Source: a virus
IMG/VR virus record: IMGVR_UViG_3300050029_000117
Span: 1 to 57,188 of that record
Strand: one strand, 5' to 3'
DNA: 57,188 nucleotides
The position numbers and the translations under genes were made by a program. The stretch's first letter is position 1; every line of letters begins with the position of its first letter. Of this stretch, positions 1 through 56,637 are shown one piece after another. Below the pieces are notes generated by a model. It saw only the letters and a program-made list of their open reading frames with translations, made no database searches and had not been told where the DNA came from.

Positions 1-127
1 TCTACAAGCGATCGCCAAGAAGGGTAAGACGGTGACCCATTAATCATTATAAAGTTTTCTCTTGTTTCTGCACCCCGACATTTCACAGTGAGTTTAAGAG
101 CGCACTGCGTAGCAGAAAAAGCCATTG
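1..127. repeat. 127-bp terminal direct repeat, identical to 57062..57188; the contig closes into a circle of about 57,061 bp
   Basis: Bases 1-127 read identically to 57062-57188. An ORF is continuous and in frame across the join. The length suggests an assembler k-mer overlap of a circular or terminally redundant genome. Confidence 0.9.
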
Positions 128-1434: not shown

Positions 1435-2034
1435 TTATTCTCGGTACCATATACCCCCCTGGAGTACGAGGTGTACAAACTCGCCGCCCGTTGTGAGCAC
1501 ATACGATGCCGCACCTCCGGGGAAAGTATTGCCGTTGGTGTCGATCAGTATTACTGTGTTGGCGCTACTATCGGTTTTAAATACCGCTATCTCGGTGTAG
1601 CCCTTTAGATCTTTGGTGACTGACAACCCGGTCGTATCATAGTACAGCGGTGCAACGCCCCCACCACCCGATCCGCCGGCAGCCGACACATTATCCACCG
1701 TGTAGATCAAATTGCCCGCCGAGTCGTAGAGCGCGACTTTGTAGAAGCCGGTCAGCCAAACATTTGCCCTCCCTGCTGAGTCCATAATAACAGGGTTGGC
1801 GTTGGTGGTGGCACCGCTGGCATCCGTATAAGTGGCTTTCGGTGTGACCGTACCGGGTCCACACGTCGTACCCGGTAGGCAGGTGTACAGCCGACCCCCC
1901 GATAGCGGCGCCCCCTGGCTGGTGAAAAACTGCGCCTTGGGCATCGGCATCAGACTCATAGCAGCGTAGAGCGGCTGGCACGTGGTGAGGGTCAGCAGGC
2001 ACAGTGCTAGTAGCGTACGGGTAATGTAGATCAT
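1435..2034 (-). CDS. tail-fibre-like protein (conserved phage fibre N-terminal motif) preceded by a Sec-type signal peptide
   Basis: ATG 2034 overlaps the upstream stop (ATGA), with AAGGAG upstream. The N-terminus is MIYITRTLLALCLLTLTTCQPLYA. It is followed by AQFFTSQGAPLSGGRLYTCLPGTT...TYTDASG...NPVIMDSAGRANVWL...YKVALYDSAGNLIYTVDNV, a motif typical of phage fibre/spike N-termini. Confidence 0.6.
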   Translation of the reverse strand: MIYITRTLLALCLLTLTTCQPLYAAMSLMPMPKAQFFTSQGAPLSGGRLYTCLPGTTCGPGTVTPKATYTDASGATTNANPVIMDSAGRANVWLTGFYKVALYDSAGNLIYTVDNVSAAGGSGGGGVAPLYYDTTGLSVTKDLKGYTEIAVFKTDSSANTVILIDTNGNTFPGGAASYVLTTGGEFVHLVLQGGIWYRE

Positions 2035-2468
2035 CCTTTGAACTCCTTTAGCCACTTACCTATCGTGGTCGGTACGTGAAACTTGTCGGATAGCCACCAT
2101 AGAAACAATAGACCGACTAACGCCCGGTCGGTAAATTGTTTCTTGATGCTATCCCAGAATCTCTGCTGCCTTTTCTCCGCCACATACCGCCCGTCCTCCT
2201 TGGCGTGCCGCAGCTCTATATCTCGCAGCTGCACAAACGCCTGGTCGATATCCGTCTCTAGTTTTATTGACTTGGTGGCATGCTCATCCAGTCGTTGACC
2301 ATGCCCCGCGATAGTGGCACCTTGGTACGCTATGGCCTCCATTGCTATGGCCTGGCGTTCCATAAGTTCATCTTGCCGGTCCATGCGTTTGTCCCACCTG
2401 TCAATGGTCTTGTTGATTGACTCAAGCACTGGGTTCTGGGGGCACTCGGCCACGGTATGAAGTGTCAT
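2031..2468 (-). CDS. coiled-coil protein with a C-terminal transmembrane segment (function unknown; lysis or assembly accessory possible)
   Basis: ATGA overlap with the upstream gene at 2465-2468. The protein has a heptad-like charged core and a C-terminal ALVGLLFLWWL hydrophobic stretch. Confidence 0.45.
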   Translation of the reverse strand: MTLHTVAECPQNPVLESINKTIDRWDKRMDRQDELMERQAIAMEAIAYQGATIAGHGQRLDEHATKSIKLETDIDQAFVQLRDIELRHAKEDGRYVAEKRQQRFWDSIKKQFTDRALVGLLFLWWLSDKFHVPTTIGKWLKEFKG

Positions 2469-2911
2469 AGGTCTGAGGGCTCCTGTATGATGAGTGCCCA
2501 TTTTACTTCGGGCTTATCATACCAGCGGTCATTAAATTGTTTCCGACTGTAACGGTCAATCTTTGCGTTGTACGGGTTAAAAATATGAATCGCTTTGCCT
2601 GCTTTCACAACTACCCCGTAATGTCCTTCGCCACCCCACTGGTATAGCACCATAGCGGGTAGCGGTATATCTCTGATGTCCCGACCTTCATAGATAGAGT
2701 GACTGATACTCACTCTATTCAGGTACGCGGATAGGTTCGACGGCTCAGTGCCCGTTTCGTACTTGGTTTTAAGCTGCTCCTCGGTCGGCATGTAGTCGAT
2801 GGGCCGCGCAACGTGTGGCCACACAAGTATGCTGAAAAGATACCGTAGAGCGAACACTCCACAGGTCGCTTCATTCGACTGGCGGAATGCTAAGAGAGAT
2901 AGATCTTGCAA
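2465..2911 (-). CDS. papain-fold cysteine peptidase, C39-like
   Basis: Q-x5-C (FRQSNEATCGVFAL) is followed by GEGHYGVVVKAGKAIHIFNPYN...SRKQFNDRWYD, the Q/C/H pattern and tail of C39-like peptidase domains. TTG start with GAGG upstream. Confidence 0.55.
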   Translation of the reverse strand: MQDLSLLAFRQSNEATCGVFALRYLFSILVWPHVARPIDYMPTEEQLKTKYETGTEPSNLSAYLNRVSISHSIYEGRDIRDIPLPAMVLYQWGGEGHYGVVVKAGKAIHIFNPYNAKIDRYSRKQFNDRWYDKPEVKWALIIQEPSDL

Positions 2912-3354
2912 AATGTCGCCTCGCGTCCCGAGTCAAACCAGTTCTGGTGAGTGTGAAAAAACTCGCCACCGAATGTCTCGCAGAGATGTGTCATGGCTGG
3001 GTGGGTGCAGTGCGCCGTTACGGCCTCGCACTTACCGGCAATTCGCCCCATCCAGTTAGCCATCAGGATTTTGGTGAGTCCTTTACCTTCAAACTCAGGC
3101 AGAATTGCTGCTGAGTAGAGATAGATGTATTGACCCTCGGAATGATCAACATCCAGTATCTCCTCGTCAAACTCGGTATGCCTAACTCCGTACATCTCAC
3201 CCGCCAGCTTGCCGTCAACCAGCAGCCAGACCGTTATGCAGTTTTTAAGTAGGTCGGTCTTGTCAGTAACATCCAGCCGCAGCTCGGGCTCAAAAATGTC
3301 CTCAAACTGCATAGTGGTGTCAATGGGTAAATCCGTTCTAAATGTGATTTTCAT
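2890..3354 (-). CDS. GNAT-family N-acyltransferase
   Basis: Motif A is present: YLYSAAILPEFEGKGLTKILMANWM (R/Q-x-x-G-x-G/A type acyl-CoA site). ATGA overlap with the ATP-grasp gene. Confidence 0.6.
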   Translation of the reverse strand: MKITFRTDLPIDTTMQFEDIFEPELRLDVTDKTDLLKNCITVWLLVDGKLAGEMYGVRHTEFDEEILDVDHSEGQYIYLYSAAILPEFEGKGLTKILMANWMGRIAGKCEAVTAHCTHPAMTHLCETFGGEFFHTHQNWFDSGREATFCKIYLS

Positions 3355-4913
3355 ATTTCTGCCTTTCCAAAGTTTATTCCGAACTTTTCACCGGCTTCTA
3401 TCTGCTTCTCTGCCTCGTCGAATATGGTCATGTCATGCTCCATATCCTCGGTCTTGACTGTCTCGGCGATTTTCATGGCCTTGTCCGCCGCTTCTTTCCA
3501 CGTCTTGCCAGACGCTGTGACCGCCCCAAAAAATGATCCGTTGCCGGCAGGGATGCAGTGCATCTTACCGCCATGCTGCAAATGGTTCTTCAGCTTGATA
3601 TTGTCCGCATGCTCTTTGGGATAATCCACTACCAGCTCATGCGACTCATGCCACGGCGACCGCAGGATAACCTCTGCGATATACGGGTTGTCCCATTTGA
3701 GGACAGGTAGGACGCCCCCCGCACACAACCAGGCCACCTCAGCGTAATTGACAATGTGCTCACACATGGCCTCGCTGGGCGGACTGGGCGCTCGTTGCGT
3801 CGCGTCGATAAAATAACCTTTGCCGTCCTCGGTAAAAATTATCTCGGTGGATAGGTGCCCGTTATATCCGAGTTTCTTGTAGACACCGGACACGGCTTGA
3901 TTGACTTTATCTATCGCTTCTGGTGTCTCTGCAAATATCTTGCCCAATAATCCACGATCTTTTATTTCGTAGCCGACCAGACAGTTTTTAGTATACTCGC
4001 CGTTCACGCAAAAGCCGTCATAGCCGCCCTCGGCCTTTTTCTTGAGGACATTCTGCACCAATATCTCTATCGTGCGGCTAGCGTGCTCACCGATTCGTTG
4101 CTTCACATCGTTCAGTTTGGCCTCAAAAGCCGTCATATCTCCCGGATACTTCATGGTTTCAAAGTCCTCACGGTAGTACGGAGTCTTGAGCCATTTTGAG
4201 TTTTTACCTCTCAAGTACTCGGCCAGTGGGTCCAGACCCTTGATACGGTGCGTATATGCTACGGGCAAACCACAGTCAACCAATGTCTTGAGGAAATAAT
4301 CTTTATCCAGTTCCATCTTCTCGCTGCGACCCGAGCCGAATACCCGATGCCCCTGTGCCCGCAGATAGACCTGCAGATCACCGTCGTAGCAGTCCGGGAA
4401 AAAGATCAGGTCTGCTTTGGCGACGTACGGCCAAAATGAGTAGACGCGCTCGATCTCGGGGAGACCGGTGCCGATGTCTTTGAAACGTGAGGAGGGGTAG
4501 GGGGCCGACTCGGCCAGGTAAAACCAGACTTTCTTGAACTTCTGACCGAGTTTCTGGGCGAGGAAGATGTAGAGACCTTTGCGCCCATAGACCAGACACG
4601 TCTTATCAGACAGATCCACCGCTTGCGGGTCTTTCTGCTTGATACCCTTGGCAGCAGCATAGATACCGGAGTGTAAACCTTCGGGTGGTACGTCGGTGAG
4701 TTTGGAGTGGACGGCGGGCTCGTGACGTTTTACCCATCCGAGTGCCATTTTGCGGGATAGCCACATACTACCCCCGTTGGGCTGGAAACCGTGGGTCGCA
4801 TCCGGCATACCGGTGGGCAGACCATGCGCCTCAATGATCGTGGCGTGCGAGTCGCTTGGAGTACCTGTTACAATGGTTCCATCCGGTATGCGGACTGCTG
4901 GCAATAAACGCAT
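3351..4913 (-). CDS. ATP-grasp fold ligase with an extra ~95-aa N-terminal domain
   Basis: 520 aa. The C-terminal half shows ATP-grasp-like strands (GGYDGFCVNGEY ... HLSTEIIFTEDGKGYFIDATQRAPSPP). Subfamily is not assignable by eye. Confidence 0.5.
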   Translation of the reverse strand: MRLLPAVRIPDGTIVTGTPSDSHATIIEAHGLPTGMPDATHGFQPNGGSMWLSRKMALGWVKRHEPAVHSKLTDVPPEGLHSGIYAAAKGIKQKDPQAVDLSDKTCLVYGRKGLYIFLAQKLGQKFKKVWFYLAESAPYPSSRFKDIGTGLPEIERVYSFWPYVAKADLIFFPDCYDGDLQVYLRAQGHRVFGSGRSEKMELDKDYFLKTLVDCGLPVAYTHRIKGLDPLAEYLRGKNSKWLKTPYYREDFETMKYPGDMTAFEAKLNDVKQRIGEHASRTIEILVQNVLKKKAEGGYDGFCVNGEYTKNCLVGYEIKDRGLLGKIFAETPEAIDKVNQAVSGVYKKLGYNGHLSTEIIFTEDGKGYFIDATQRAPSPPSEAMCEHIVNYAEVAWLCAGGVLPVLKWDNPYIAEVILRSPWHESHELVVDYPKEHADNIKLKNHLQHGGKMHCIPAGNGSFFGAVTASGKTWKEAADKAMKIAETVKTEDMEHDMTIFDEAEKQIEAGEKFGINFGKAEI

Positions 4914-4914
4914 G

Positions 4915-5313
4915 TCACTCCCAGACTAGAAAGTCGAATCTGAATACGAACCTGTTGACTGCTATGTCGAAACCTCTCAGCACTCTCACCTTCACGCCCG
5001 GTGCTTCTGCACTACCACTCAGTGCCATACCGGGTGGCATGTGTATGCTAAAATCTACTTCTAACCCCTCCGGTAGGTTCATCTTGGCTGCGCCCCACTC
5101 TTTCCATACCGAGAGGTTGTCTACCGCTGGTTGTATAAACTTGTTGACAAATTCTGGTATGGACAGTAGTGCAAAATCTTTGTCGCACGGGTCGGATTTG
5201 TTGTTGGAAAGTAGCATTAGACGGGTGGTCATCCTGGGTTTTACGGGGTACTTAGCTAGGTAACAGCGCAGTGCTTCTCTCGCGACTACATCTCCTGAAA
5301 TAGATTTTATCAT
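4915..5313 (-). CDS. 132-aa mini paralog of the major capsid protein (N-arm, spine-helix and C-terminal strand motifs only)
   Basis: DKDFALLSIPEFVNKFIQPAVDNL aligns with MCP DTDLALNIEDFAERILDPAISMI. VKVRVLRGFDIAVNRFVFRFDFLVWE aligns with MCP ISLRILRGFDIINNLYLSRLDILYGY. Confidence 0.55.
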   Translation of the reverse strand: MIKSISGDVVAREALRCYLAKYPVKPRMTTRLMLLSNNKSDPCDKDFALLSIPEFVNKFIQPAVDNLSVWKEWGAAKMNLPEGLEVDFSIHMPPGMALSGSAEAPGVKVRVLRGFDIAVNRFVFRFDFLVWE

Positions 5314-5334
5314 TTTTTCTACCTACCTTTCTTG

Positions 5335-5363
5335 TTGACAGCGTGTGGTGGCTAGTGTATGCT
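5335..5363 (+). promoter_or_regulatory. sigma70-type promoter, TTGACA-17 nt-TATGCT, antisense to the late operon
   Basis: TTGACA at 5335-5340, a 17-nt spacer, and TATGCT at 5358-5363. It is followed by AAGAGG and a small ORF. Confidence 0.4.
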
Positions 5364-5366
5364 ACA
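5347..5366 (+). repeat. 20-bp exact repeat GGTGGCTAGTGTATGCTACA (second copy at 38496..38515)
   Basis: Identical 20-mers at two distant loci. Each lies downstream of a TTGACA and upstream of an SD plus a small + strand ORF embedded antisense in minus-strand genes. Confidence 0.85.
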
Positions 5367-5382
5367 TTTAAGAGGTGACGCT

Positions 5383-5484
5383 ATGTTCTGGCCCGTATTT
5401 GCTACCGTACTGCTTGCTCGTAGACCCGCCGGTTGGTACGTATTATTTATCGTTTACGCGCTTTGCTACTGGTGGACGGCTTAG
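5383..5484 (+). CDS. 33-aa hydrophobic micro-protein (MFWPVFATVLLARRPAGWYVLFIVYALCYWWTA)
   Basis: AAGAGG SD 7 nt upstream and a promoter-like element upstream. It is convergent with and overlaps the 3' end of gene 5447..5797. Below the ORF-track size cutoff. Confidence 0.3.
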   Translation: MFWPVFATVLLARRPAGWYVLFIVYALCYWWTA

Positions 5485-5797
5485 CGATGCCGATAGCTTT
5501 CTTTAAAACGGGCTTTTTGTCAAGTTTTTTCGTCTGTTTGACGGTTAAAACTCGCTCTTTTGCATGGAGCTTGGCCGGACCCGTCTTTTTGACCAATCCA
5601 CCCTTTTTGTACTCCTTCATAGCTTTTTCCGTTTCGCCCTTGCGGTCGAGCATGGCTTTACGGGCATCCGTTCCGGTATCTTCAAACTTGCGCTTTGGAG
5701 CGGGCTTGGCTGGCGGTGTGGCTGCCTTAGCTGCTTTGGTTTCCCCGCCACGGACCGCTATTCCGACACCCTTTTTAAAATCATCCCATGTAGACAT
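5447..5797 (-). CDS. 116-aa Lys/Glu/Thr-rich basic protein (virion-internal or modification-substrate candidate)
   Basis: Strongly Lys-rich composition. N-terminus is MSTWDDFKKGVGIAVRGG-ETKAAK. It lies between the ejection-protein genes and the enzyme cassette. Confidence 0.5.
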   Translation of the reverse strand: MSTWDDFKKGVGIAVRGGETKAAKAATPPAKPAPKRKFEDTGTDARKAMLDRKGETEKAMKEYKKGGLVKKTGPAKLHAKERVLTVKQTKKLDKKPVLKKAIGIAKPSTSSKARKR

Positions 5798-5815: not shown

Positions 5816-8800
5816 CTAGTTGGCAAAAGGACTTAACCCCCCTGACATTCTTCGTCTTGCGTGATCCACCGCTTTTTGCATTATTTTGCGGCCCATTGTA
5901 GTTTTAAACATCTCTGGACCCACCGGGTTCTGTAGCAGGTAGTTGACTTCGTTTTTATCTAACGTAGGTACCATTGTGGGTATTTCTACCTCTTTGCCAC
6001 CCAGGTTTACACCTATCGATATCTCGCTAGATACTTTGCCGTCTGGTCGGTTCATCAGTCCGAGCCACCCATTACCCTTGTCGCTGCCATCCGCCCGCTT
6101 ACTCCAGTTGGTCTTATCAACGGATGCTGCTTTAGCAGTCGGCAGCACCGTACCAGGCTGAGTAGGTGTGAGTATTTGCTGACCGGTCTGGCCTATGATC
6201 TGCTGCGTACCATCCGCATTAACCAAAGTTTCAGGTTGCTTCTCGCCCACTTTGTACTGCTGTCCAGGTACGACTGGCCCACCATTCTCTCTGCCCTCAA
6301 GCTGACCGGCTTTCCATTCGCCATACGTACTGCCGTGGTGCCAGTCAGGCGTATCCTCGGCGGGTGGTGCGGGCTCCGGGTCTGGTGTGCCCACTGACTC
6401 CCATTTATCCGCCGCTTGTTGCTGATCGTCCGGCGGTGCAGCGGGTGCTGCGGCATTTGCTGCCTGTCCAGCTGCACCCCGCTTGGTGGCCTGTTTCATG
6501 TACCCCTCAAACTGCGCTTTGAGATAGTTCACCGTGTGCGCCGAGTGGTCGCCCTCAAGCACCGCCGTCAATGCGTCGGCCTTGCGACCGTCGAGCATTG
6601 CGTCCATTATGAACTCTTTTATCCGGCTCAACTGGAACTTGGTACCCGCCTTTATTAGTGTGGACACAATGCCTGCCGAGGTGTTGACTGCACCCCCCAT
6701 TTCGACAAGACGCGCCCCGTCGCGGGCTACTTGGTACCCCAGCCGAGCCTGTATGTTGCCGGTGGCGTTCTCTCTGGTGTTACTACCGGAACCGTACCCT
6801 CTGGCATTTCTGGACTGACTGATCTTTTTCAGTGTGCGGTAGAACCGGTGCAGCTTGGCTAATTCGGGTTTGTCGAATATTTCCGGCAATACGTCCTTCA
6901 GCTTTAATCTCAGCTCATTTGCTTTGGCGTAAGATAACTTTGGTCTACCCAGCGAGTCATCCACCCCCGACTTTGCCAGTTCATCGTACATGTAGTCACG
7001 AAAAAGACCCTTAACGCCCTTGACATACGCTGGATCGTCGGCACCAAAAGCTTTTAGGTCTCGGACTGCTTGCACTTTGTTACGTATTTTTAGGATAGCA
7101 GGCACTATCTCGGATGGTGGCAGGTCCATTATCTGCCCAACTACGGACTTGTTAAATGCGTCCACATCAGCCTGAGCTAAAGCGACCGACTCCCGGATCT
7201 TCTGCGTACTGCCAAATTCGTCCCGCAAGTCGTACTTAGTAAGTGTCTCTTTATTGTTGGCGATCCAGTCAGCAATTTTATGGGGCTTACTATCGACCAG
7301 ACTGGACAACTCGCGGTTGTAGTGGTCGCGCATAACATCAGCAGCAGCCTTGCGCCCTACCTCGTCGGGCAGCAGTCGGCCCTTGGCGTCTCGCTCCGTT
7401 GTCTCACTGAGCGATCTGATAAGATCGTCGGCACCGGTCGGCGTGGTGTACTTGGCCGGCAACTTCTCAGTGGGTAGCCTGGTGCCGTCGGACTGATTAC
7501 CCCGTTTAAAGATGTCTTCCATAGCGCCGGTACCGTACCGCTCTTTTTCCAGTCGTGCCAGACTGTTGGCTTTCTTATAGGCAGCGGAAAAATCCTCAGC
7601 CGGTTTCAAGTCGGCCAGTTGCTGCTGGCGCTGGGCGATACCTTCCTGGAGGCTGGTGACCAGTTGCGGATTGGCCGTTGCTACGGTGGGGGGTTGGTAA
7701 TCTGCACCACCACCCTTACCTTTGAGATAGGTGAGTCTGTCCGCCAGCGACTTGGCGTACTGAGCGTCGGTAATGCCTGTGTTCTGCATGATCGTCTCGC
7801 CTTTGCCGGCCAGATACTTGGCGAGGTGAGCATTCTGCTCTTTGAGCGGGGGCGGTGCGGCCTGCTCCTTAGCCAGTTGCTTCTCGGCCTCGGCAATCTC
7901 TGCTTTAATCTGTGACGGCCTGACCGCACGGAGCTTGCCGCCCGGAGCGGCTGGCGGGGCCAGCATAACGTCGCCCGTCTCAGCCGCTTTGCCCATGGCT
8001 TCGGCATCCTCGATCAGCGCGGACTTCATCTCCCCGAGGTAATGTGCAATGGTGGGGTCTACGTTTTTGCTGTACAAGTCCCTGTTAATCGACTTATACG
8101 CCGCCTCATAACCAGATGTAGTCCGCTCGTTATTGAGGATAGCTTTAAACTTACTAGTAAGCGTACTCTTAGCCACATCATCGATAGTTGTGTCTGCTGC
8201 GATCCTCTTGTACGCGCTCTCGGCAGCGGGCCACTCCATCTCATAACCCAGCTTCTCCACATCATTAAATGCCGCTTTTTTCTGAGTATTAAGCGGCTTG
8301 CGTTTGGCAGCCACAACATCAACCAGCGTGTCGCCCACTGCCTGCGGTCCGGGTGCTTGCTCCAGTCGGGTCGTCTCCCCAGCCAATTTACCAGTAGCGA
8401 CATTTAGAGTACCCCGCTTCTCAGCAGCTATAGCTGCTATCCTGTTTCTAATATCCGGTACTTTAGCAGGCGCCACCATCTTAGCCTGTCCCGCCGCCAG
8501 ACCAATCAACTCGTCCTCTTGCTTCACAAGTCGGCCCGCAAAAGATGGGTTGTCGTTAGCTTCATTCTTTGTAAAATCAGCAAGACCCTTGTTGCCCTCC
8601 AATGACGCAGTGGGAAACTGTGGTCGCTGACCCTCTTTCTTGGTAGAACCCAGGGTGTTCTGTAGTGACTCGGATTCAGCTCGGTTGTGCGCATGTACTT
8701 TGGCAGCTCTGGATGACAACGGATTGGCAGTGGCAGTGTACTCTTGGGCAGCGGTAAGTTTTGCCCGCTTGGTGGATAATGGCAGACCACGCTCGGCCAC

Positions 8801-9409
8801 GCCTCGGGTGGCCGCCTTGGCGCCGGACCGTAGGGCGTTGAGTGATGGTTTGATAGCCATAATCCCAGCTATGTCGCCGCCTATGTCTACCGCGTCCCTC
8901 ACCAATCCGGTATTACCGGTTACGTCCTCAAATTTATTAGTAGCGTCACCGAGATCATTACCCATATACCCCATAAGACGGGACTGGCCGAGTACCGGTT
9001 TAAACGCCCCAGCTTCGGACGCCTCTCGACCAGCGGCCCATGCCTCTTTTACTGGACGACCCGCCGATAACGCACCGGCAAATGCTCCTGTACGGTTTGC
9101 CAGCTTATTAACGCCCTGCACACCCTGTGTAAGCGCACCTTCTGCGATACGCGGTACTTCCATCAGCTCATTGGAAAGTCGGTCACCCACCTGACTCCAA
9201 AATCCAGGTTGTGCCTTGACGGCAGCCACACCAGCCTTGTTGGCTTTGGACCACTTGCCCTCATTGGCTGTCGGTGTGGCTACAGCGGGCTTACCACCGC
9301 CAGTAGATTGCAGATACTGGAGCGTCTTGGTACTGACCTTACCCAAATTGCCCGCCTGCATAGCTTCCAGATCCGGGGTCGGTATTTTGCTGTAATCCAC
9401 ATCGGCCAT
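5816..9409 (-). CDS. 1197-aa large internal virion / DNA-ejection protein (putative)
   Basis: Largest gene, last of three consecutive large or low-complexity genes after the tail hub, matching the position of ejection or core proteins in P22/T7-like podoviruses. No catalytic motif recognised. Confidence 0.45.
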   Translation of the reverse strand: MADVDYSKIPTPDLEAMQAGNLGKVSTKTLQYLQSTGGGKPAVATPTANEGKWSKANKAGVAAVKAQPGFWSQVGDRLSNELMEVPRIAEGALTQGVQGVNKLANRTGAFAGALSAGRPVKEAWAAGREASEAGAFKPVLGQSRLMGYMGNDLGDATNKFEDVTGNTGLVRDAVDIGGDIAGIMAIKPSLNALRSGAKAATRGVAERGLPLSTKRAKLTAAQEYTATANPLSSRAAKVHAHNRAESESLQNTLGSTKKEGQRPQFPTASLEGNKGLADFTKNEANDNPSFAGRLVKQEDELIGLAAGQAKMVAPAKVPDIRNRIAAIAAEKRGTLNVATGKLAGETTRLEQAPGPQAVGDTLVDVVAAKRKPLNTQKKAAFNDVEKLGYEMEWPAAESAYKRIAADTTIDDVAKSTLTSKFKAILNNERTTSGYEAAYKSINRDLYSKNVDPTIAHYLGEMKSALIEDAEAMGKAAETGDVMLAPPAAPGGKLRAVRPSQIKAEIAEAEKQLAKEQAAPPPLKEQNAHLAKYLAGKGETIMQNTGITDAQYAKSLADRLTYLKGKGGGADYQPPTVATANPQLVTSLQEGIAQRQQQLADLKPAEDFSAAYKKANSLARLEKERYGTGAMEDIFKRGNQSDGTRLPTEKLPAKYTTPTGADDLIRSLSETTERDAKGRLLPDEVGRKAAADVMRDHYNRELSSLVDSKPHKIADWIANNKETLTKYDLRDEFGSTQKIRESVALAQADVDAFNKSVVGQIMDLPPSEIVPAILKIRNKVQAVRDLKAFGADDPAYVKGVKGLFRDYMYDELAKSGVDDSLGRPKLSYAKANELRLKLKDVLPEIFDKPELAKLHRFYRTLKKISQSRNARGYGSGSNTRENATGNIQARLGYQVARDGARLVEMGGAVNTSAGIVSTLIKAGTKFQLSRIKEFIMDAMLDGRKADALTAVLEGDHSAHTVNYLKAQFEGYMKQATKRGAAGQAANAAAPAAPPDDQQQAADKWESVGTPDPEPAPPAEDTPDWHHGSTYGEWKAGQLEGRENGGPVVPGQQYKVGEKQPETLVNADGTQQIIGQTGQQILTPTQPGTVLPTAKAASVDKTNWSKRADGSDKGNGWLGLMNRPDGKVSSEISIGVNLGGKEVEIPTMVPTLDKNEVNYLLQNPVGPEMFKTTMGRKIMQKAVDHARRRMSGGLSPFAN

Positions 9410-11356: not shown

Positions 11357-12213
11357 CGACCTCCTGTTTGAAACGGGCCTACAGCTGCGGGGTCAGAATA
11401 CGTGTAGTTATAACCGCCCGTACCGTACGGGTTGTACGTTTGACCGTTCTGTGCGGCGGTTAGCAGATTCTGCTGGTTCTGGTAATTCTGGTAATTTTGC
11501 ACACCGCTCGTAAGAGCGTTACCGGCAATGTTACCGATATTATTCATTGAGGCTGACCGGGCATTACCAGCGGCTATCTGTGTACCCGCGATATTATTGG
11601 CGGCGTCGGTCCCTATTGTGGTCACATTATTAGTCATATTCTGGCCCGCTTGCCCTATTTGGCTCGCCGCTATCTGACCCGTGCCCGCCAGACCCGACAA
11701 CCTATTAAAGTCCGTATTCTGGGCGTTGAGGTTCGCGTTGTACGATGTGAGATTATTTTGGAATCCCTGCTGGTAGTACGTTTCGGCGTTGTTGCCCGCG
11801 AGAGCCTGGAGCGCCACCATCTGATTACCACTGCCGAGAGACCCACCACTTGCCGCCCCCGCCCGATTACTGGCGAGGATGTTGTTCTGCTGGGTCATCA
11901 TATTTTGGTACAACGGATCTTTCTTAAAAGCGGCCATGTCATAGTTTAGCGGGGTGGGCGTAGAGGCAAACCGTCCGCCTGGTTGCATACCTGTAGACAA
12001 CTGGTTTACGGCGTCCGTACCCGCTTTGAGCCACGGTGCCTGGTCCGCTCTCTGCTGGAGAAATTCGTTCCATTGGACCTGCGTGGCGGCATCTGCCGCA
12101 CTGGCCGTTGTTTGGGCCGCTGACTTTTGAGCGTCTGCCGCATTACTTGACGACGCATACGACACACCCGCTGAGATTGCCGCCCCCGCTACTACCGCAA
12201 CTGCTATCCACAT
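11353..12213 (-). CDS. 286-aa Gly/Ala/Asn/Gln-rich protein with an N-terminal TM segment (ejection-protein candidate)
   Basis: MWIAVAVVAGAAISAGVSYA hydrophobic start and low-complexity GANQ-rich body. ATGA overlap downstream and a 10-nt overlap with the radical SAM gene. Confidence 0.4.
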   Translation of the reverse strand: MWIAVAVVAGAAISAGVSYASSSNAADAQKSAAQTTASAADAATQVQWNEFLQQRADQAPWLKAGTDAVNQLSTGMQPGGRFASTPTPLNYDMAAFKKDPLYQNMMTQQNNILASNRAGAASGGSLGSGNQMVALQALAGNNAETYYQQGFQNNLTSYNANLNAQNTDFNRLSGLAGTGQIAASQIGQAGQNMTNNVTTIGTDAANNIAGTQIAAGNARSASMNNIGNIAGNALTSGVQNYQNYQNQQNLLTAAQNGQTYNPYGTGGYNYTYSDPAAVGPFQTGGR

Positions 12214-13244
12214 GACGCACCTCCTTGGTGCAGCTTGAATCCGTCCTTATACCCTTTCATAATTCCTTCGTTGATAATCTGGCAGATCGGCACTGGATAG
12301 CACCGGCCATCCATAGCCAACATAAATACAGGGCGCGACGCTTGGTGGTAGTCCAAATTATCTACCGTAGGCGCCGAGCTGAGAGATACCTGCGTACCCC
12401 CGTCCAACTCCAGGTAGAGACAATACATATTGGACCGCTCCACCGCCAGAGACATCCGGGGGTGGAGGTCTGCAAATTTGGCGATGAATGCTTTATGAAG
12501 ATCGGAAAGATACAACTGGTTGGTGTCACCCTTATTACCCCAATTTTTGAACATGGTGCGTATTCTCAGCATGGGGTAATACTTCTTGGTCACATCAAAC
12601 CACTCTCTGATGTAATCCAGCTCGTCGAGTGTCTGAATGGAAAACATAGAACACATGGCGTGCTTTCCTGATTTCTCCATGTTCTCCAGCGCGTGTATCT
12701 TGGCAGCAAATACGTCCGGCCCGTAATTCTTGGGGTGCTGCATGGACATGGCAAGGCGCAGCACATTGCCCTGACATAGCGGTGAGTCGAGTAACCGACT
12801 AAAAAACTCGTCGTCGGCTAGTCTGATCATGTTGGTGATCGCATTGATGCCCCAGCCGTGATCTGCCGCTTCTTGGGTAAACTCAAAAAAGTCTGGGCGT
12901 AGTGTAGGCTCTCCGCCCGACATAAGCAGATTAAACCCACCGTAGGGAGACAGCACGTTGTTGTAGTACGAGAACGGGTGCATCGGCTCCGCACCCATCG
13001 GGTAGTAACACCAAGAGCACTTCATGTTGCATTGGTCGTGGGTGTGGATGATAATTGTGTTATTGTTCCCGAGCGTCCCTAGCGAATAGAAATTGCTTAC
13101 ATGTTGGATGTCTTTCTCTACCACAGCACTGAACGGTCCATGCTCCGGGCATTCCTTGGTCATCACAACCATGCCGTTCTGGAATATTATCGCCGCTTCA
13201 ACTTTCCGGTAGCAGACCGGGCATAGCGAGAGTGTCTTTATCAT
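12204..13244 (-). CDS. radical SAM enzyme with an N-terminal zinc-ribbon-like module
   Basis: CNMKCSWCYY gives a CX3CX2C cluster. The N-terminus is MIKTLSLCPVCYRKVEAAIIFQNGMVVMTKECPEHGPF. ATG 13244 forms an ATGA overlap with the upstream stop, so the longer ORF-track N-terminus is rejected. Confidence 0.7.
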   Translation of the reverse strand: MIKTLSLCPVCYRKVEAAIIFQNGMVVMTKECPEHGPFSAVVEKDIQHVSNFYSLGTLGNNNTIIIHTHDQCNMKCSWCYYPMGAEPMHPFSYYNNVLSPYGGFNLLMSGGEPTLRPDFFEFTQEAADHGWGINAITNMIRLADDEFFSRLLDSPLCQGNVLRLAMSMQHPKNYGPDVFAAKIHALENMEKSGKHAMCSMFSIQTLDELDYIREWFDVTKKYYPMLRIRTMFKNWGNKGDTNQLYLSDLHKAFIAKFADLHPRMSLAVERSNMYCLYLELDGGTQVSLSSAPTVDNLDYHQASRPVFMLAMDGRCYPVPICQIINEGIMKGYKDGFKLHQGGASCG

Positions 13245-13612
13245 AACGTAGCAACCTTCCCGGACACGCTGGCCCGCACCACACCCGCCACACTGGCGGT
13301 CAATTGTAACGTGTACCCAGTCAGCAGCACCTCGGCCATAGCCAGTGGTAAGTACTGGCCTGCAGTCAGCAGCTGGTCGCATACATGCGTTGCCACTCCA
13401 GCCACTCCACCAGGCGGTATAGCGTGGATGGTGGCCGTACGGCTGGACCCGTCGGTATTAAACAGACTTACCCATTCCACGCGAGTAATGGCCTGCGCCT
13501 TATACTGAGGCGTTGCGGGCGCTGCGCTGGGGAGTGCCACACCGGGTATCAGTAGGGCATCCGTGGTGGGGTCGATATTTTTAATAGTCTGTACTTGCCC
13601 CGGACCGCTCAT
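13241..13612 (-). CDS. 123-aa virion-associated hypothetical protein
   Basis: ATGA-coupled at both ends (13609-13612 and 13241-13244). No motif recognised. Confidence 0.4.
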   Translation of the reverse strand: MSGPGQVQTIKNIDPTTDALLIPGVALPSAAPATPQYKAQAITRVEWVSLFNTDGSSRTATIHAIPPGGVAGVATHVCDQLLTAGQYLPLAMAEVLLTGYTLQLTASVAGVVRASVSGKVATL

Positions 13613-15393
13613 CTCTCCACCTCGGCGTAACCACCTAGTAATACTACACGGGTGGGATCTGACCCCCGCAGTTGCCACACCTTATCACGGGCCGCACCCA
13701 ATTTCCAGAAAACAATACGACCCGTAGCATCCTTGACCCGCTCGCTGCCGTAGGTGTGCCCACCATCCGTGGAGTATGATAGACCTAGCTGTGGTTTGGA
13801 CGCAGTATCTGTCAGTACTACGGAGGCGGGGGGTGGCAATGGAAACCCCGGAGGGGGTAGCTCCGGTCTGCCTATGGGTGTATACCCCCTGTTCAGTAAA
13901 GAGCTGTTGGTGGGGTCAACAAATACCACTTGAGGCGGCTGCGTGTAGCCCGTCCCGCCCGCTGTCAAGGTAACCGACTGGATGCTACCCAGACCCGCCA
14001 CTGCTGTAGCGGTTGCACCGGACCCGTTGCCGTCGGTTGTAACTATGACCACTTGCGGGTCCATAACATAATCATACCCAGGGTTGGTAATGGTGATACT
14101 TGCAACAGCATCGCCAGACAGAGTAGCTACCCCAGCCGCTACGCCCGGTACGGTGGTAATATCCGCATCGATCTCCAGCCTATTGACGAACAGACGATCC
14201 AGATCGTCATTGTCGAATAGGTGGTTGGTTCTCCGTAGCCACACTATCGGGTTTCCCACCTCAGTCAATCGCTCCTGGCTCATATGGTAGATATTGCCCG
14301 ACTGGTAATCACCGACCAGGTGCATGTTGTTAAAATAACAATACGAGTTGCTGAGATGCCGGTTTATCGCGTACGGGTTGTCCACATACGAGCTGCGGTC
14401 ATGCCACATCTGGGTGATCGTGTCGTAAACAAATGTCTCGTTATCGCCGGGGCTGGTAAACACGACAAATGTGTGACCACCCTCGCTGTAGCTGTAACCG
14501 AAAGCGTTTACTCGGTCCGTCCACTTACCCATCCGGTAGACATACGCCGGGGTGCCAATCCGCATCGGTGTGGCGCCGTTGAGCATGACAGGCCCGATAA
14601 ACTCCCCGCCGTTCTGCTTCCGCTCGGTGGCCAGCCAGAAAATACTACCCTCGCCCTGGCAGACTGACCCCGGTGACTCGGTACCCCACGGCACGACCGC
14701 ACCGGAGATCCGGCTGAACGGAAAACCGTTGATCGTTGGCGTGCCATTGTTCCCGTAGTACTCAGTGGTGTACTGCTTAATAAAAATGAGTTGTTCGGAA
14801 AAAGCGATTGGTACCTGTACGATGTCCGAGGCAGATTGCACGGGGGTAGTCGCCAGAGCGTTCCATGTCGTACCGTCGTATAGTTCCGAGGCTGAGGCGT
14901 TCATAGTACCGTTGGTGACGATGAAGTAACCATCGATGTACTCTACGTGGGAGGGAAACGTGGGAAATCCGGGGCTGGAGATGGTAACGAAGGTATTGGC
15001 TATCACATCATAGATGTACCCGGCCTGTCCGTCTACGATCATCAACTGGTTGCCGCCGATACCAGCGGACAAGATACCGTTATTTTTCATACTGACCTGC
15101 CCGAAGGAGGTCAGTAGCGCGCCGAGTTGCGCCGAGGCGGTGCCCGTAGCGTCAAGAGCGAACAGACCGTTGGCCGATACCACATAATTTTTACCGTTGA
15201 ACACGTGCTGACCGCGATTTGGCCCGACCCCCACGTTACCCCATTGGGAGCATCCTGGGGTCTTGACCAACGATATAACAGCCTTGCTGGTCGGATCTGC
15301 GTCCAGCTCGGGGTATAGGTTGACAGACCGACTCGCATTTACGTTGAGTGATCGGCCCTCCCCACTGCCGCCGAGTATTTGGAGCTTGGGCAT
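13609..15393 (-). CDS. tail hub / DNA-stabilisation protein (P22 gp10-like beta-propeller type) with a C-terminal extension
   Basis: N-terminal LNVNASRSVNLYPE...KTPG...RG...NGLFALD pattern, length, and position after the adaptor gene. The C-terminus carries two G-x-GY-x3-P-x-V-x-F/I motifs. Confidence 0.5.
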   Translation of the reverse strand: MPKLQILGGSGEGRSLNVNASRSVNLYPELDADPTSKAVISLVKTPGCSQWGNVGVGPNRGQHVFNGKNYVVSANGLFALDATGTASAQLGALLTSFGQVSMKNNGILSAGIGGNQLMIVDGQAGYIYDVIANTFVTISSPGFPTFPSHVEYIDGYFIVTNGTMNASASELYDGTTWNALATTPVQSASDIVQVPIAFSEQLIFIKQYTTEYYGNNGTPTINGFPFSRISGAVVPWGTESPGSVCQGEGSIFWLATERKQNGGEFIGPVMLNGATPMRIGTPAYVYRMGKWTDRVNAFGYSYSEGGHTFVVFTSPGDNETFVYDTITQMWHDRSSYVDNPYAINRHLSNSYCYFNNMHLVGDYQSGNIYHMSQERLTEVGNPIVWLRRTNHLFDNDDLDRLFVNRLEIDADITTVPGVAAGVATLSGDAVASITITNPGYDYVMDPQVVIVTTDGNGSGATATAVAGLGSIQSVTLTAGGTGYTQPPQVVFVDPTNSSLLNRGYTPIGRPELPPPGFPLPPPASVVLTDTASKPQLGLSYSTDGGHTYGSERVKDATGRIVFWKLGAARDKVWQLRGSDPTRVVLLGGYAEVER

Positions 15394-16782: not shown

Positions 16783-18018
16783 TTAAGATAGTGTAGCAGC
16801 ACTGCCTCCGCCCACTTCCACATACCAGATGGTTCCAACAGTCTTAACGACACCAAACGCTTCTTTGACCGCACGCATGACGCCGGGCCAATTTTCCGAG
16901 AAGTCGTGGCCCGCGATTACCCGCTTGGCCTTATCTCGCCAGGCTTCAATATTCGCTTTGCACCCTTCGTAGGTGTGCTCTGCGTCGATAAATACCATGT
17001 CCGCATCTTCAACGCAAGCGGCCATTTCCGAGCTGTTGCCGCGTGCGACCCGCAGGTTGGGGTACTGACCGACATTACGTTGGAACGTCTGAAAAACGTC
17101 CTCTTTTTCAACTATTTCCGACAAAATGCCGTTACTCGACGGGTCGTGGCCGGTCCAATTGTCAACGCATGTGACCATGCCCTTGCAACCCTCCAGCAGT
17201 ACCGTCGCACTGCGCCCTTTCCACGACCCCAGCTCAACCACACTACCCATCCGACCGGCGGTATTAAGCAACCACTCCAACTCTTGGTCGGTCATAAAGC
17301 CGTCGATCACCCGTGCTTTTTGTACGGCGGGTGGGTACTGCGCCTGTTTCTGCATAAACTCATGGAAGTTACCCGAAAATCCTTTGCTACCTTCGTGAAT
17401 GAAATCCACGTTGGGCAAACAGTGCATCTTGCCACCAATTTCCGACCAGAGATGACAGAAACCGTAGTCATCACCATACCACCGGCCCTTCTTGACAAAC
17501 GTACCGAACAGGTCATGGGTCATCAAACCGCTGGCGCAGTCGCGGTACGCAAGTTGCGGGTAAGCGTCCTGCATCTTTTCCAGTACGTGCCGGCGAATCT
17601 TGAGGAAACCTGTGGCCAGACCTTCAGCCAGCAGCACACCATTCTCATTGACCGGATGATGGTTTGCGTCGGTTGCCAGCGACACGGCAAATTCCTCAAC
17701 GGCCTGCTTCTTGGGGTACGCTCCACCAATTACATCCTCGGTGCTGGTAATCAGATCCCGGAATGCTTGCGGTGAGAATCCCAGATCTGCGTCGATAAAT
17801 ACCAGATCGGTGCATTCCGACGCCATAAACCGCCGGACCAAGTTGTTGCGGGCCATGGTCACATAGGGGCATCCGGGCTCAAACTTGAACTCGAAAGGAA
17901 CCTCCATAAGCAGGAGGGCTTGCATGGCGTTCATCAGAGACTGGACGGTGGATACGCATACCTTCTTGTCGTAGCAGGGAATGCCGATAAAGATTTTTAC
18001 TGGGGGTGCTTCAGTCAT
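16783..18018 (-). CDS. bifunctional GT-A-type glycosyltransferase / class I SAM-dependent methyltransferase fusion
   Basis: N-terminal half: IGIPCYDKK...ARNNLV...LVFIDADLGF, with a DxD. C-terminal half: GFMTDQELEWLLN...VVELGSWKGRSATVLL...VFIDAEHTYEGC...IAGHDF, a Methyltransf_24/TylF-like pattern. Confidence 0.6.
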   Translation of the reverse strand: MTEAPPVKIFIGIPCYDKKVCVSTVQSLMNAMQALLLMEVPFEFKFEPGCPYVTMARNNLVRRFMASECTDLVFIDADLGFSPQAFRDLITSTEDVIGGAYPKKQAVEEFAVSLATDANHHPVNENGVLLAEGLATGFLKIRRHVLEKMQDAYPQLAYRDCASGLMTHDLFGTFVKKGRWYGDDYGFCHLWSEIGGKMHCLPNVDFIHEGSKGFSGNFHEFMQKQAQYPPAVQKARVIDGFMTDQELEWLLNTAGRMGSVVELGSWKGRSATVLLEGCKGMVTCVDNWTGHDPSSNGILSEIVEKEDVFQTFQRNVGQYPNLRVARGNSSEMAACVEDADMVFIDAEHTYEGCKANIEAWRDKAKRVIAGHDFSENWPGVMRAVKEAFGVVKTVGTIWYVEVGGGSAATLS

Positions 18019-19817: not shown

Positions 19818-21065
19818 TTATTTAGTTATACGGCAAGCAAGCTGCGGACGGCAGGCCAGATACCCATACAGAATATCCAGACGGCTCAGGTACAGGTTGT
19901 TGATGATGTCGAATCCGCGCAAGATACGCAGACTGATACCTTCAGATACTTCCCTGTAGCACATATCCATACCCTTTGGCAAGGTCATATCGCCGGTTAC
20001 GAAAGTAAAGGCGTCTTTGTGGTACGCGAGGTTCTGACCGTAGCTGGTCGAAGCAGCACCAACAAACACGACGGAGCCTGCAACGCCGCTGGTTGGGCTG
20101 GCGGTCACATTGGCATAGGGGTTCTGTGCAGCCGGGGCGGCGACAACCGGAATGATTGCTGGGCTGATGTTCAAGACCACGTTACCGTTGGCATCAGCGG
20201 TGTATACACCTGTTGCTCCGGCATCAGCTGTAGCAACAAACTGCTGAAGCGCACCAAAAGTCACCTTTGTGTCAGGGTGGACTTTATTGGAGCCAGCCAG
20301 GGTGAACACCGTACCCTGTGTGATGGTCGCACCTGCGGTGAATCCACCCAGACTGATGGTACTACCGATCTGATTGGGGCCGTTGACGAATACGTTGGCG
20401 CTACCGGCCATCGTACCAGTGGTGTGGACAGGAGCCAGCTCATTCTCGTAGAAGTCGAAGTTACTGGCGCGACCCATAGCCCCTTCCAGGAACTGATCGG
20501 AAATCTCGTCACGTGGGTTGAAAAAGTTGGTCATACCGTTGACCAGCGACGCCGAGGTTACAGAGTCAACCTGGACCTTACGGCCCTTACCTTTGGGCGC
20601 GAGGCTCTGGTTAAGCAGAGTCTTGGCATTCAGGAAAGGCAGGATACCGGCAGGAGTTACGCCTGCGGTACCGGTCAGCTGGTACACATCCTTGAACATG
20701 CCAAAGGCGTCATTCTCGATGTTGGCCACAATCATGGAGATTGCGGGATCAAGAATACGCTCGGCAAAATCCTCGATGTTAAGGGCCAGATCGGTATCGC
20801 TGAAATCCATATCAGCACCGCCGATATTAGCGAGTACCAGGACCACGTTGGTTTCGTTGGTGGCCTGCATGTTGGCAACCGGCCCACGGCGGAAATTGTA
20901 CTGGTTGGGCAACCGGATTTTCAGTTGGTTGCCGATTTTGGCGTTTTCCTGGCCGAACTGATCATCGTATTGACGGCCAATGGTGCCTAGAAACGTGCTC
21001 TTGTTGTGAAGGACTGCGAGCGCCTTACGGGTTATTTTTATATCTGTCAAAAAATTTGAACTCAC
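19818..21065 (-). CDS. major capsid protein (P22 coat-like HK97 fold)
   Basis: 415 aa with a GTG start and AAGGAGAG SD. Lies after the scaffold gene. The C-terminal ...RILRGFDIINNLYLSRLDILYGY and N-terminal motifs are typical of P22-type coat proteins. Confidence 0.75.
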   Translation of the reverse strand: MSSNFLTDIKITRKALAVLHNKSTFLGTIGRQYDDQFGQENAKIGNQLKIRLPNQYNFRRGPVANMQATNETNVVLVLANIGGADMDFSDTDLALNIEDFAERILDPAISMIVANIENDAFGMFKDVYQLTGTAGVTPAGILPFLNAKTLLNQSLAPKGKGRKVQVDSVTSASLVNGMTNFFNPRDEISDQFLEGAMGRASNFDFYENELAPVHTTGTMAGSANVFVNGPNQIGSTISLGGFTAGATITQGTVFTLAGSNKVHPDTKVTFGALQQFVATADAGATGVYTADANGNVVLNISPAIIPVVAAPAAQNPYANVTASPTSGVAGSVVFVGAASTSYGQNLAYHKDAFTFVTGDMTLPKGMDMCYREVSEGISLRILRGFDIINNLYLSRLDILYGYLACRPQLACRITK

Positions 21066-27087: not shown

Positions 27088-27371
27088 GTAATTTCTATTC
27101 GCTCCAGCGCGGTACGGGCTACCTGTTTCAATTTAGTTTCTCTTCCAGCAGGCAGGGGCAATGAAAAATCCGGTCTGGCGATCTGTTCCAACGCCTCCCG
27201 ATACTTTAGCTCTCTGCCGACTGCATCCGCGACATCTTGGTAACAACCAGCCAACTGTACCCGCAGTTGCTCTATCTCGCCCGTCAGCCTTTCGTTGCGG
27301 CAAAATGGGCAGTAGTTATGCACTGTAGACCCAAAATCGTGTGTGAAACACTCATACGTTATTTTGCTCAT
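27084..27371 (-). CDS. 95-aa zinc-finger/coiled-coil protein
   Basis: C-x3-H...C-x2-C near the N-terminus. ATGA overlap with the TerL stop. Confidence 0.45.
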   Translation of the reverse strand: MSKITYECFTHDFGSTVHNYCPFCRNERLTGEIEQLRVQLAGCYQDVADAVGRELKYREALEQIARPDFSLPLPAGRETKLKQVARTALERIEIT

Positions 27372-56148: not shown

Positions 56149-56637
56149 TTACAACTCACCGTTATACAGCTTGATTTCGTTTGCCCTGCGAGTTACGAGT
56201 CCGTCACATACGACATGCTGACCGTCCTTGGTTATCTTATTCCAAACGGCCATACGAGCTGGTACGCCATCATAGTTGCCTGAGTTGAGAGTGGATAGAG
56301 CACTGGATGTCATAAACCCACTATTACCGATGTTGAACGCAAATATGGTTAAAGCGTCAAACTGGTTTTGGTTCAGCGCCACCTTGACGGAGCTGTTAAC
56401 CACGCATTCCACGGGGTAAAGGTCTTGCGCAAGCAGGTCAAGTGATTGCTGCTCTGTTATCCCGTCGTGGGCGGCAACCTGCACCCCTTTAATGGTGATA
56501 AGTCCACTCGCCCGCTCGGATTTGGTAAGTAGATGGCCTATTCCGATAGTAGGTAAACCGGCAGAGTCTTTGTAGAGGTGTAAAACATTATCCTCCCATT
56601 GTTCCAGCAGATTCAATCCGTGATTTGATACTTTCAT
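56149..56637 (-). CDS. GH24 (T4/lambda-R-type) lysozyme endolysin
   Basis: LLEQWEDNVLHLYKDSAGLPTIGIGHLL gives the E-x8-D-x5-T catalytic pattern, plus QFDALTIFAFNIG. Confidence 0.8.
   Translation of the reverse strand: MKVSNHGLNLLEQWEDNVLHLYKDSAGLPTIGIGHLLTKSERASGLITIKGVQVAAHDGITEQQSLDLLAQDLYPVECVVNSSVKVALNQNQFDALTIFAFNIGNSGFMTSSALSTLNSGNYDGVPARMAVWNKITKDGQHVVCDGLVTRRANEIKLYNGEL

Follow-up and report, generated by a model that had tools for sequence, protein, structure and literature searches.

What do an ATP-grasp ligase, a GNAT acetyltransferase and a C39-type cysteine peptidase do together in the virion operon of a phage? This question is raised by a sequence of 57,188 nt from IMG/VR record IMGVR_UViG_3300050029_000117, which was studied over its whole length and is called the window here. 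An initial annotation of the window had described the three genes as parts of one cassette and had compared them with graspetide/microviridin pathways, which make ribosomally synthesized and post-translationally modified peptides (RiPPs). In our analysis the trio appears to be a conserved, apparently undescribed module that is found across unrelated phages, and its core enzyme is the ATP-grasp ligase. We tentatively favour the reading that the module modifies (cleaves, acetylates and ligates) a packaged virion protein or an ejected protein.

The three enzymes

The trio and the N-terminal domain of its ligase are encoded as follows. Structure models were made with AlphaFold2 (AF2).

3351-4913, minus strand: 520-aa predicted PurD-like ATP-grasp carboxylate-amine ligase with four domains (AF2, Foldseek and family profile)
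4629-4913, minus strand: N-terminal domain of the ligase, ~95 aa (family alignment)
2890-3354, minus strand: 154-aa GNAT acetyltransferase (Pfam, AF2 and Foldseek)
2465-2911, minus strand: 148-aa stand-alone C39-type cysteine peptidase (Pfam and invariant residues)

The open reading frames (ORFs) and the three enzyme classes given by the initial annotation were all confirmed. The overlapping stops and starts that it had described were also found: 4 nt between ligase and GNAT, 22 nt between GNAT and C39, and 37 nt between C39 and the next gene, which encodes a 156-aa protein. The trio is indeed located in a minus-strand late operon, between the genes of injected or internal proteins and the fibre/tailspike genes.

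Searches with the single ligase protein gave no match in Pfam, PHROGs, PDB sequences or PADLOC. Its identity was reached only through the family profile and the structure model. The AF2 model (predicted local distance difference test score 93.5) has the ATP-grasp fold. Foldseek returned 523 PDB matches at E<=0.001, with PurD (2yw2, E=6.5e-20, TM-score 0.73) at the top, followed by PurT, PurK and biotin carboxylases. The 50 best matches listed were all ATP-grasp enzymes, namely PurD, PurT, PurK, biotin carboxylases and one L-amino-acid ligase, and no graspetide ligase was among them. The family profile matched PurD among the PDB sequences at E=5e-14. Nothing close to the ligase was found among the BFVD viral structures, and the only GenBank phages with a homologue were two hot-spring virus records (~26% identity).

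The ligase shares the four-domain fold and the linker motif FG..(x)..LE.(S/D)K with the PurD/PurT/PurK/biotin-carboxylase clade. Five residues are invariant in the family (K243, E295, E357, D370 and R374). In the Mg/ATP strand, where PurD has ExNxR, the family has a conserved DxTxR, with Thr (Thr372) in place of Asn in nearly all members. In contrast, the window ligase is only ~16% identical to PurD and scored 19.7 bits against TIGR00877 purD, far under the cut-off of 288. GGREHA is the N-terminal substrate-binding motif of PurD, by which phosphoribosylamine is bound. It is not present in the ligase family, where the equivalent strand-loop has the consensus VYDRGLYxFLA. Judged by profile and model, the ligase is thus predicted to be an ATP-grasp enzyme of the PurD/PurT/PurK clade, yet no PurD orthologue. 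This placement removes the graspetide analogy for the ligase, and the initial annotation had itself named PurK/PurT-type families as an outcome that speaks against the analogy. PurD, PurT and PurK are the nearest relatives, but the motif, the score and the location in a virion module do not fit a purine enzyme. As the ligase is encoded in phage virion modules, its substrates must differ from those of PurD.

About half of the ligase family carries the ~95-aa N-terminal domain, which PurD lacks. An exhaustive search placed this domain only at the N-terminus of ligase family members and in stand-alone proteins of ~117-146 aa. TPR/CHAT proteins were also matched, through a 28-residue stretch that Pfam assigns to generic TPR repeats, and were rejected as spurious relatives.

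The GNAT protein scored 21.2 bits against Pfam Acetyltransf_1, barely over the cut-off of 20.7. With its AF2 model (score 95.9), 659 PDB matches were obtained at E<=0.001; those listed were GNAT-fold enzymes or domains throughout. Naa60, RimI and Ard1 were among them, and so were PAT and SpeG, in mixed ranks. The best profile match in PDB was Naa50 (E=1.3e-5). Thus the favoured assignment, made by profile, is that the GNAT is closest to protein N-terminal acetyltransferases, while the fold ranks are mixed with PAT and SpeG. The family consensus QGKGYG agrees with the acetyl-CoA loop Q/R-x-x-G-x-G/A; the sequence at this place is EGKGLT in the window protein and EGRSLA in that of the related locus L054.

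The peptidase scored 26.5 bits against Pfam Peptidase_C39 (cut-off 22). Gln11, Cys17, His97 and Asn112 are intact in the window protein and invariant in 26 family members, and the catalytic Cys/His dyad on which the initial annotation had made its assignment depend is thereby present. These residues lie at nearly the positions of Gln, Cys, His and Asn(Asp) in ComA, and like the C39 domains of ComA and PCAT1 the phage protein exceeds the Pfam cut-off. Unlike them, it is stand-alone (~145 aa) or fused to GNAT, and in no case joined to a transporter. The 43 homologues found are without exception stand-alone (~119-178 aa), and three further ORFs are GNAT fusions; a C39 domain at the N-terminus of an ABC exporter was found in none of the 43. 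The C39 profile was also about as close to the pseudomurein endoisopeptidase PeiR (E=1.1e-5) as to the ComA peptidase domain (E=7e-6).

Recurrence of the trio and of its ligase

The three genes are adjacent in 12 distinct loci, which belong to two unrelated lineages (P22-like and crAss-like) and have two gene orders. The order ligase-GNAT-C39 was found in the window and in L054, L055 and L071, all of the window lineage; the ligase of L054 is 78% identical to that of the window. The order GNAT-C39-ligase was found in L028, L052, L056, L057, L058, L063, L067 and one contig without DNA. This second lineage consists of 46-94-kb contigs, and L056 has a crAss muzzle-protein domain (PF25729). When the search was seeded with C39, GNAT and ligase adjoined every C39 homologue that had sufficient flanking DNA, except on one short fusion contig. 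In each of the 14 loci that had context, GNAT adjoined the ligase. Moreover, Pfam identified three fusions with GNAT at the N-terminus and C39 at the C-terminus (L068:667-1620, L069:1149-2051 and L072:10001-10903). The ligase is downstream of the fusion in L072, and none was found within ~1.2 kb of it on the 3.3-kb contig of L069. L073 and L074 have GNAT and ligase without C39. The trio always stands beside large internal proteins, of 1197 aa in the window and ~2000-4200 aa in the crAss-like contigs, one of them with an ART-PolyVal domain.

The initial annotation had expected such a late-operon system to be undescribed, and no description of a ligase-GNAT-C39 module was found in the literature searched. 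It had also proposed to check the co-occurrence of four genes, the trio and a 116-aa protein, in related phages. The trio recurs in both lineages, but the 116-aa protein is a singleton.

In GenBank BK013347 a related gene carries the annotation 'phosphoribosylaminoimidazole carboxylase', and the window C39 gene adjoins a holin-like gene. These two observations would fit an auxiliary purD with GNAT and C39 as unrelated passengers, or a C39 protein that serves as endolysin. Such an explanation is barely conceivable. The purD score is far too low, GGREHA is replaced by VYDRGLY, and the strict co-occurrence and the fusions of GNAT and C39 do not fit passengers. The endolysin was ruled out because the window has a canonical Phage_lysozyme gene at 56149-56637.

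The ligase is found more widely than the trio. We collected 89 homologues from metagenomes in two size classes, ~520 aa and ~415 aa; the shorter class, about half of the family, is without the first ~95 residues. The loci collected (given as L numbers) are ~50 distinct ones from several phage lineages, with one locus (L003) on a 970-kb contig without phage genes around. In the phage loci the ligase gene lies within the structural module, either after large internal proteins and before fibres or beside the portal, and it is present in every locus of the ATP-grasp-seeded search. Three homologues carry inteins: P0036 (885 aa) and L046:9983-12310 at IDxT|C...C|RxPxPP, and L050:1378-3666 at RGD|C. 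Inteins are usually located in essential active-site motifs, and their insertion at the Mg/ATP strand motif suggests that this motif is functionally critical. Together with the structural-module location and the strict synteny, the intein insertions suggest that the ligase matters to the phage. The inserts are of homing-endonuclease size.

The immediate neighbours of the ligase form sets that almost never co-occur. The commonest neighbour is cl5, a family of 120-150 aa with the motif HELxE...DDPG...APYHxxH (L004:11738-12109 and 14 other loci). Its HE..E, D, PG, PY..H, W and Y are invariant, searches of Pfam, PHROG, NCBIfam and PDB gave no match to it, and it is never found together with GNAT-C39. 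A pair of 92-aa and 111-aa proteins adjoins the ligase in 17 loci. In six loci (L013-L016, L019 and L022) the neighbour is an AdoMetDC-like pyruvoyl decarboxylase (PF02675, E=2e-6 to 5e-4), which overlaps or abuts the ligase gene or sits within ~350 nt upstream; L019 has both this gene and cl5. The AdoMetDC-like genes L014:1808-2176, L019:5920-6306 and L022:9195-9590 encode 121-131 aa and have an ES self-cleavage motif. GNAT with or without C39 forms the fourth set. In a rough tree the GNAT-linked ligases are polyphyletic, and the trio ligases of the window and L054 are sisters of the ligase of L004, where cl5 occupies the same slot. This pattern indicates that the GNAT-C39 pair is a ligase-dependent accessory unit which has been gained or lost among close relatives.

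In several lineages, unrelated small and very Lys-rich ORFs (48-102 aa) lie immediately beside the ligase (L054:167-343, L055:2523-2669 and L014:3537-3845). The 116-aa protein of the window holds the same position.

Other phages have ATP-grasp genes in a different setting. Iyer et al. are said to have proposed in 2009 an amidoligase module of LUZ24, PaP3, PhiRIO-1 and PhiM6. This module (Amidoligase_2, glutamine amidotransferase, ATP-grasp and AIG2/GGCT-like proteins) is similar in joining a phage ATP-grasp to amide-bond companions. It differs in its early/replication region, its other partners and its shorter ATP-grasp (~290 aa). No Amidoligase_2, class-II glutamine amidotransferase or AIG2/GGCT-like protein was found among the window ORFs scanned or the conserved neighbours.

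Possible substrates and chemistry

The tentatively favoured reading is a 'cleave, cap and ligate' maturation, whose target would be a protein that is packaged in the virion or ejected from it and is encoded alongside the module. The peptidase would first take off a short N-terminal segment ending in Gly-Gly, the GNAT would then acetylate the amine thus exposed, and the ligase would finally attach an amide-linked group or make a crosslink. A PurD-like ligase would activate a carboxylate as acyl-phosphate and join it to an amine, giving an amide bond, and a C39 peptidase would cut after Gly-Gly or hydrolyse an isopeptide. Beyond the observed folds, catalytic residues, operon coupling, co-occurrence, fusions and virion-module location, we infer a protein as the substrate, its identity and the order of the steps. 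A protein substrate is favoured because Naa50 is the best profile match of the GNAT, with Naa60, RimI and Ard1 among the top fold matches, because the C39 family acts on peptides and isopeptides, and because the module always lies beside large internal proteins.

Two small genes of the window lie upstream of the ligase gene.

5447-5797, minus strand: 116-aa strongly basic protein with the N-terminus MSTWDDFKKGVGIAVRGG followed by Glu (candidate substrate only)
4915-5313, minus strand: 132-aa orphan ORF, which ends 1 nt before the ligase start and has a ribosome-binding site and a Joint Genome Institute (JGI) call

The candidate substrates would be the 116-aa protein in the window and an upstream GGG protein, of 430-460 aa, in crAss-like phages. 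The 116-aa ORF has a strong ribosome-binding site and a JGI gene call, and forms a singleton cluster. The N-terminal sequence quoted in the initial annotation is correct, with Gly-Gly at residues 17-18. The protein was, however, described as Lys/Glu/Asp/Thr-rich, and its charged residues are far from balanced: it has 27 Lys (23%) and 7 Arg versus 6 Glu and 6 Asp, with a net charge of +22. The resemblance of its N-terminus to a double-glycine leader was borne out in part, with hydrophobic residues at -4, -12 and -15 but Gly at -7.

In the crAss-like trio loci, five of seven have a protein of 191-459 aa encoded directly upstream, with the N-terminus M.RI.KLY....GGG(G). The glycines are at residues 12-18. 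The residue after them is Asp or Glu in four loci and Thr in the fifth, L052, and a Lys/Pro-rich stretch comes next. This family occurs only in trio loci. It was tested for homology with the 116-aa protein and was not homologous. Such a motif is otherwise rare, with a background rate for GG[DE] at residues 8-26 of only 3 of 415 neighbouring ORFs. The Gly-Gly N-termini of the window and of the crAss-like lineage are taken as two independent, circumstantial observations, which may keep the idea of a Gly-Gly substrate alive but are no proof of it. An early guess that the crAss-like upstream protein is a lysozyme came from one motif, had no Pfam match and was dropped.

The 132-aa ORF has one near-identical copy on another contig (JGI), no homologue in the related loci and no family match in Pfam, PHROGs or NCBIfam. 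A test for distant membership in the partner families of other loci was negative for the 116-, 132- and 156-aa ORFs.

A short 'GG(L/P)V...' motif is common to the 116-aa protein (aa 66-90, GGLVKKTGPAKLHAKERVL), the 1197-aa protein (aa ~1010-1030, GGPVVPGQQYKVGEKQPE) and the C-terminus of a 574-aa protein of L055 (RADGGPVVPGQQ). This motif may mark internal or ejected proteins.

The Gly-Gly at residues 17-18 also speaks for a graspetide/microviridin-type RiPP, in which the 116-aa protein would be the precursor of a macrocyclic peptide. Microviridin clusters contain the same three enzyme classes, with the ATP-grasp ligases MdnB/C, the GNAT MdnD and a C39-bearing transporter, and removal of a leader at Gly-Gly followed by N-terminal acetylation would be plausible for both systems. 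This explanation is nevertheless largely refuted, and we regard it as very improbable. The phage ligase is of another ATP-grasp clade, PurD-like with N and C domains and not of RimK or MdnB/C type. Neither an ABC transporter nor a conserved precursor peptide with a leader and a repeated Thr/Ser...Asp/Glu or Lys core was found with the module, and the proposed precursor is unconserved, 116 aa long and highly charged. The ligase family is also restricted to phage structural modules, among late genes.

Several findings weigh against the maturation of a protein. Some concern the substrate and its leader. The -7 position of the 116-aa leader is a misfit to the double-glycine consensus. No homologue of the 116-aa protein was found in any of the 50+ related loci. 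In L054, L055 and L071, which belong to the same lineage and have the trio, no ORF with a Gly-Gly leader was found in the DNA available; the small Lys-rich ORFs of L054 and L055 are unrelated and have no Gly-Gly at the N-terminus, and L071 repeats the ORF of L055. The crAss-like GGG protein is absent from two of the seven crAss-like trio loci. Others concern the enzymes. Those relatives of the ligase that are closest and characterised all use small-molecule substrates. In most of its loci the ligase is encoded without GNAT or C39, and its AdoMetDC-like neighbours in six loci point to a small-molecule amine. SpeG, phosphinothricin acetyltransferases and a polyamine acetyltransferase of a chlorovirus (PBCV-1 A654L) are also found among the fold and profile matches of the GNAT.

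The latter group of findings would fit a small-molecule pathway. The product of the ligase would be an amide-linked metabolite, such as a polyamine conjugated with an amino acid or a peptide, that is needed for packaging or for early infection. The pyruvoyl decarboxylase would supply the amine, the GNAT would acetylate it as SpeG does, and the papain-fold enzyme would be an amidase, as in glutathionylspermidine synthetase/amidase. The interchangeable partner sets around a constant ligase are also consistent with this pathway. Against it, the best GNAT profile matches are protein N-terminal acetyltransferases, the C39 family is known for peptide and isopeptide substrates only, the module lies in a virion operon by internal proteins and not among metabolic genes, and the window showed no further polyamine genes. 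Overall, we consider a small-molecule product possible but doubtful.

The same position beside giant proteins of internal or polyvalent type, one of which carries an ART-PolyVal domain, could mean that the trio is packaged with them and ejected. The three enzymes would then modify or cleave host proteins during takeover or counter-defence, for example by removing Gly-Gly-linked ubiquitin-like tags, which agrees with the equal profile match of C39 to an endoisopeptidase and to leader peptidases. Solo GNATs among late structural genes have been argued to be deployed in the capsid (Iyer et al. 2017, PMC5512222). Like the RimI-like GNATs of that study, the GNAT studied here is encoded with structural genes beside giant internal proteins, which suggests virion delivery. 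Unlike here, no GNAT was partnered there with C39 and a PurD-like ligase, and the ATP-grasp proteins mentioned were RNA ligases only. The trio showed no packaging signal and no PADLOC matches, and the conserved GGG phage protein beside it suggests a target of the phage rather than of the host. Injected effectors are thus an unlikely explanation.

The Gly-Gly motif also allows a ubiquitin-like peptide tagging built from non-ubiquitin parts, which we consider improbable. Here C39 would expose or release a peptide ending in Gly-Gly, the ligase would phosphorylate its C-terminal Gly and join it to a lysine of a virion, ejected or host protein, and the GNAT would cap the other end. Activation of a C-terminal Gly was proposed because relatives of the ligase activate the carboxylate of glycine. 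In such a system C39 could also be the isopeptidase that removes the tag.

The surrounding late operon

An exact terminal overlap of 127 bp (window 1-127 = 57062-57188) shows that the contig is a circular assembly and a complete phage genome, with a unit length of ~57,061 bp. The tailspike gene spans the contig junction. Megablast of the region against GenBank phages gave zero matches. The other features of the window that bear on the trio are listed here.

27368-29047, minus strand, late operon: terminase
24664-27012, minus strand, late operon: P22-like portal (31% identity to P22-type portals)
19818-21065, minus strand, late operon: major head protein
13609-15393, minus strand, late operon: head-closure/P22 gp10-like protein
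12204-13382, minus strand: radical-SAM protein
Upstream of the 116-aa ORF: three large proteins of 286, 647 and 1197 aa, presumed internal/ejection proteins from size and position
5816-9409, minus strand: the 1197-aa presumed internal/ejection protein, which follows the gp10-like gene and has homologues upstream of the ligase in 10 related loci
2031-2501, minus strand: 156-aa protein with a C-terminal hydrophobic segment (context gene)
1435-2055, minus strand: 206-aa fibre N-terminal/adaptor-like protein (phrog_26190), homologous to the N-termini of the 662-730-aa fibres after the trio in L054 and L055
56149-56637: canonical lysozyme (Phage_lysozyme, E=1e-32)

The cassette was initially drawn from 2031 to 5797. 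The trio within this span is well supported, but two genes were not accounted for, the 132-aa orphan and the 156-aa membrane protein. The latter is 35% identical to a 136-aa protein of L055 that directly precedes a GH19-like lysin, and is probably lysis-associated and holin-like. Because its homologue precedes a lysin in a relative, the 156-aa gene was placed outside the cassette.

Several other proteins of the operon were noted. The radical-SAM enzyme (12204-13382, minus strand) has an HMPTM-type zinc ribbon (PF23545 at 2e-17, PF04055 at 5e-9) and is placed between the gp10-like gene and the internal proteins, and L002, L006, L008 and L009 have homologues at the equivalent place. This makes it a second unexplained enzyme of the late operon. 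A 411-aa protein of the head-tail module (16783-18018, minus strand) contains a Methyltransf_24 domain (E=1e-13) and also matches a PHROG for DNA methyltransferases. At the expected scaffold position between portal and major head gene, a 600-aa protein (22138-23940, minus strand) matches a lipase-annotated PHROG (E=5e-19) and no Pfam family. The fibre/tailspike proteins (window 1435-2055, minus strand; L054:2807-4795; L055:5275-7467) start with a signal-peptide-like hydrophobic segment that has an Ala-x-Ala-like end. This segment, unusual for a tail fibre, precedes the conserved fibre motif 'PL.GG.LYTC.PGTTCGPG'.

A radical SAM enzyme and a methyltransferase-domain protein in the same late operon, together with the combinatorial partners of the ligase (decarboxylase, acetyltransferase and others), could be read as DNA hypermodification. 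The ligase would add an amino acid to a modified base, and GNAT and the other partners would sculpt it, as in thymidine hypermodification. The mom gene of phage Mu is a late, GNAT-like DNA modifier. Among the ORFs scanned, however, there was no hydroxymethylase, kinase or transferase of a known pathway, only ordinary N6/N4 and C5 methylases, and such pathways have no role for a C39 peptidase. A DNA substrate is therefore quite improbable.

Enzymatic post-translational modification of virion and injected proteins is poorly charted in phages. Members of the ATP-dependent ligase family described here are encoded in structural operons across several phage lineages that are unrelated to one another, crAss-like phages among them. 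With a virion protein as target, the module would represent a new chemistry for the maturation of ejection proteins, and with a host protein as target it would represent a new class of injected effector. In either case it is a concrete, cloneable three-gene system. An experimental handle is provided by its optional GNAT-peptidase pair, which some genomes encode as a fusion and in whose place the closest relative has a different small gene.

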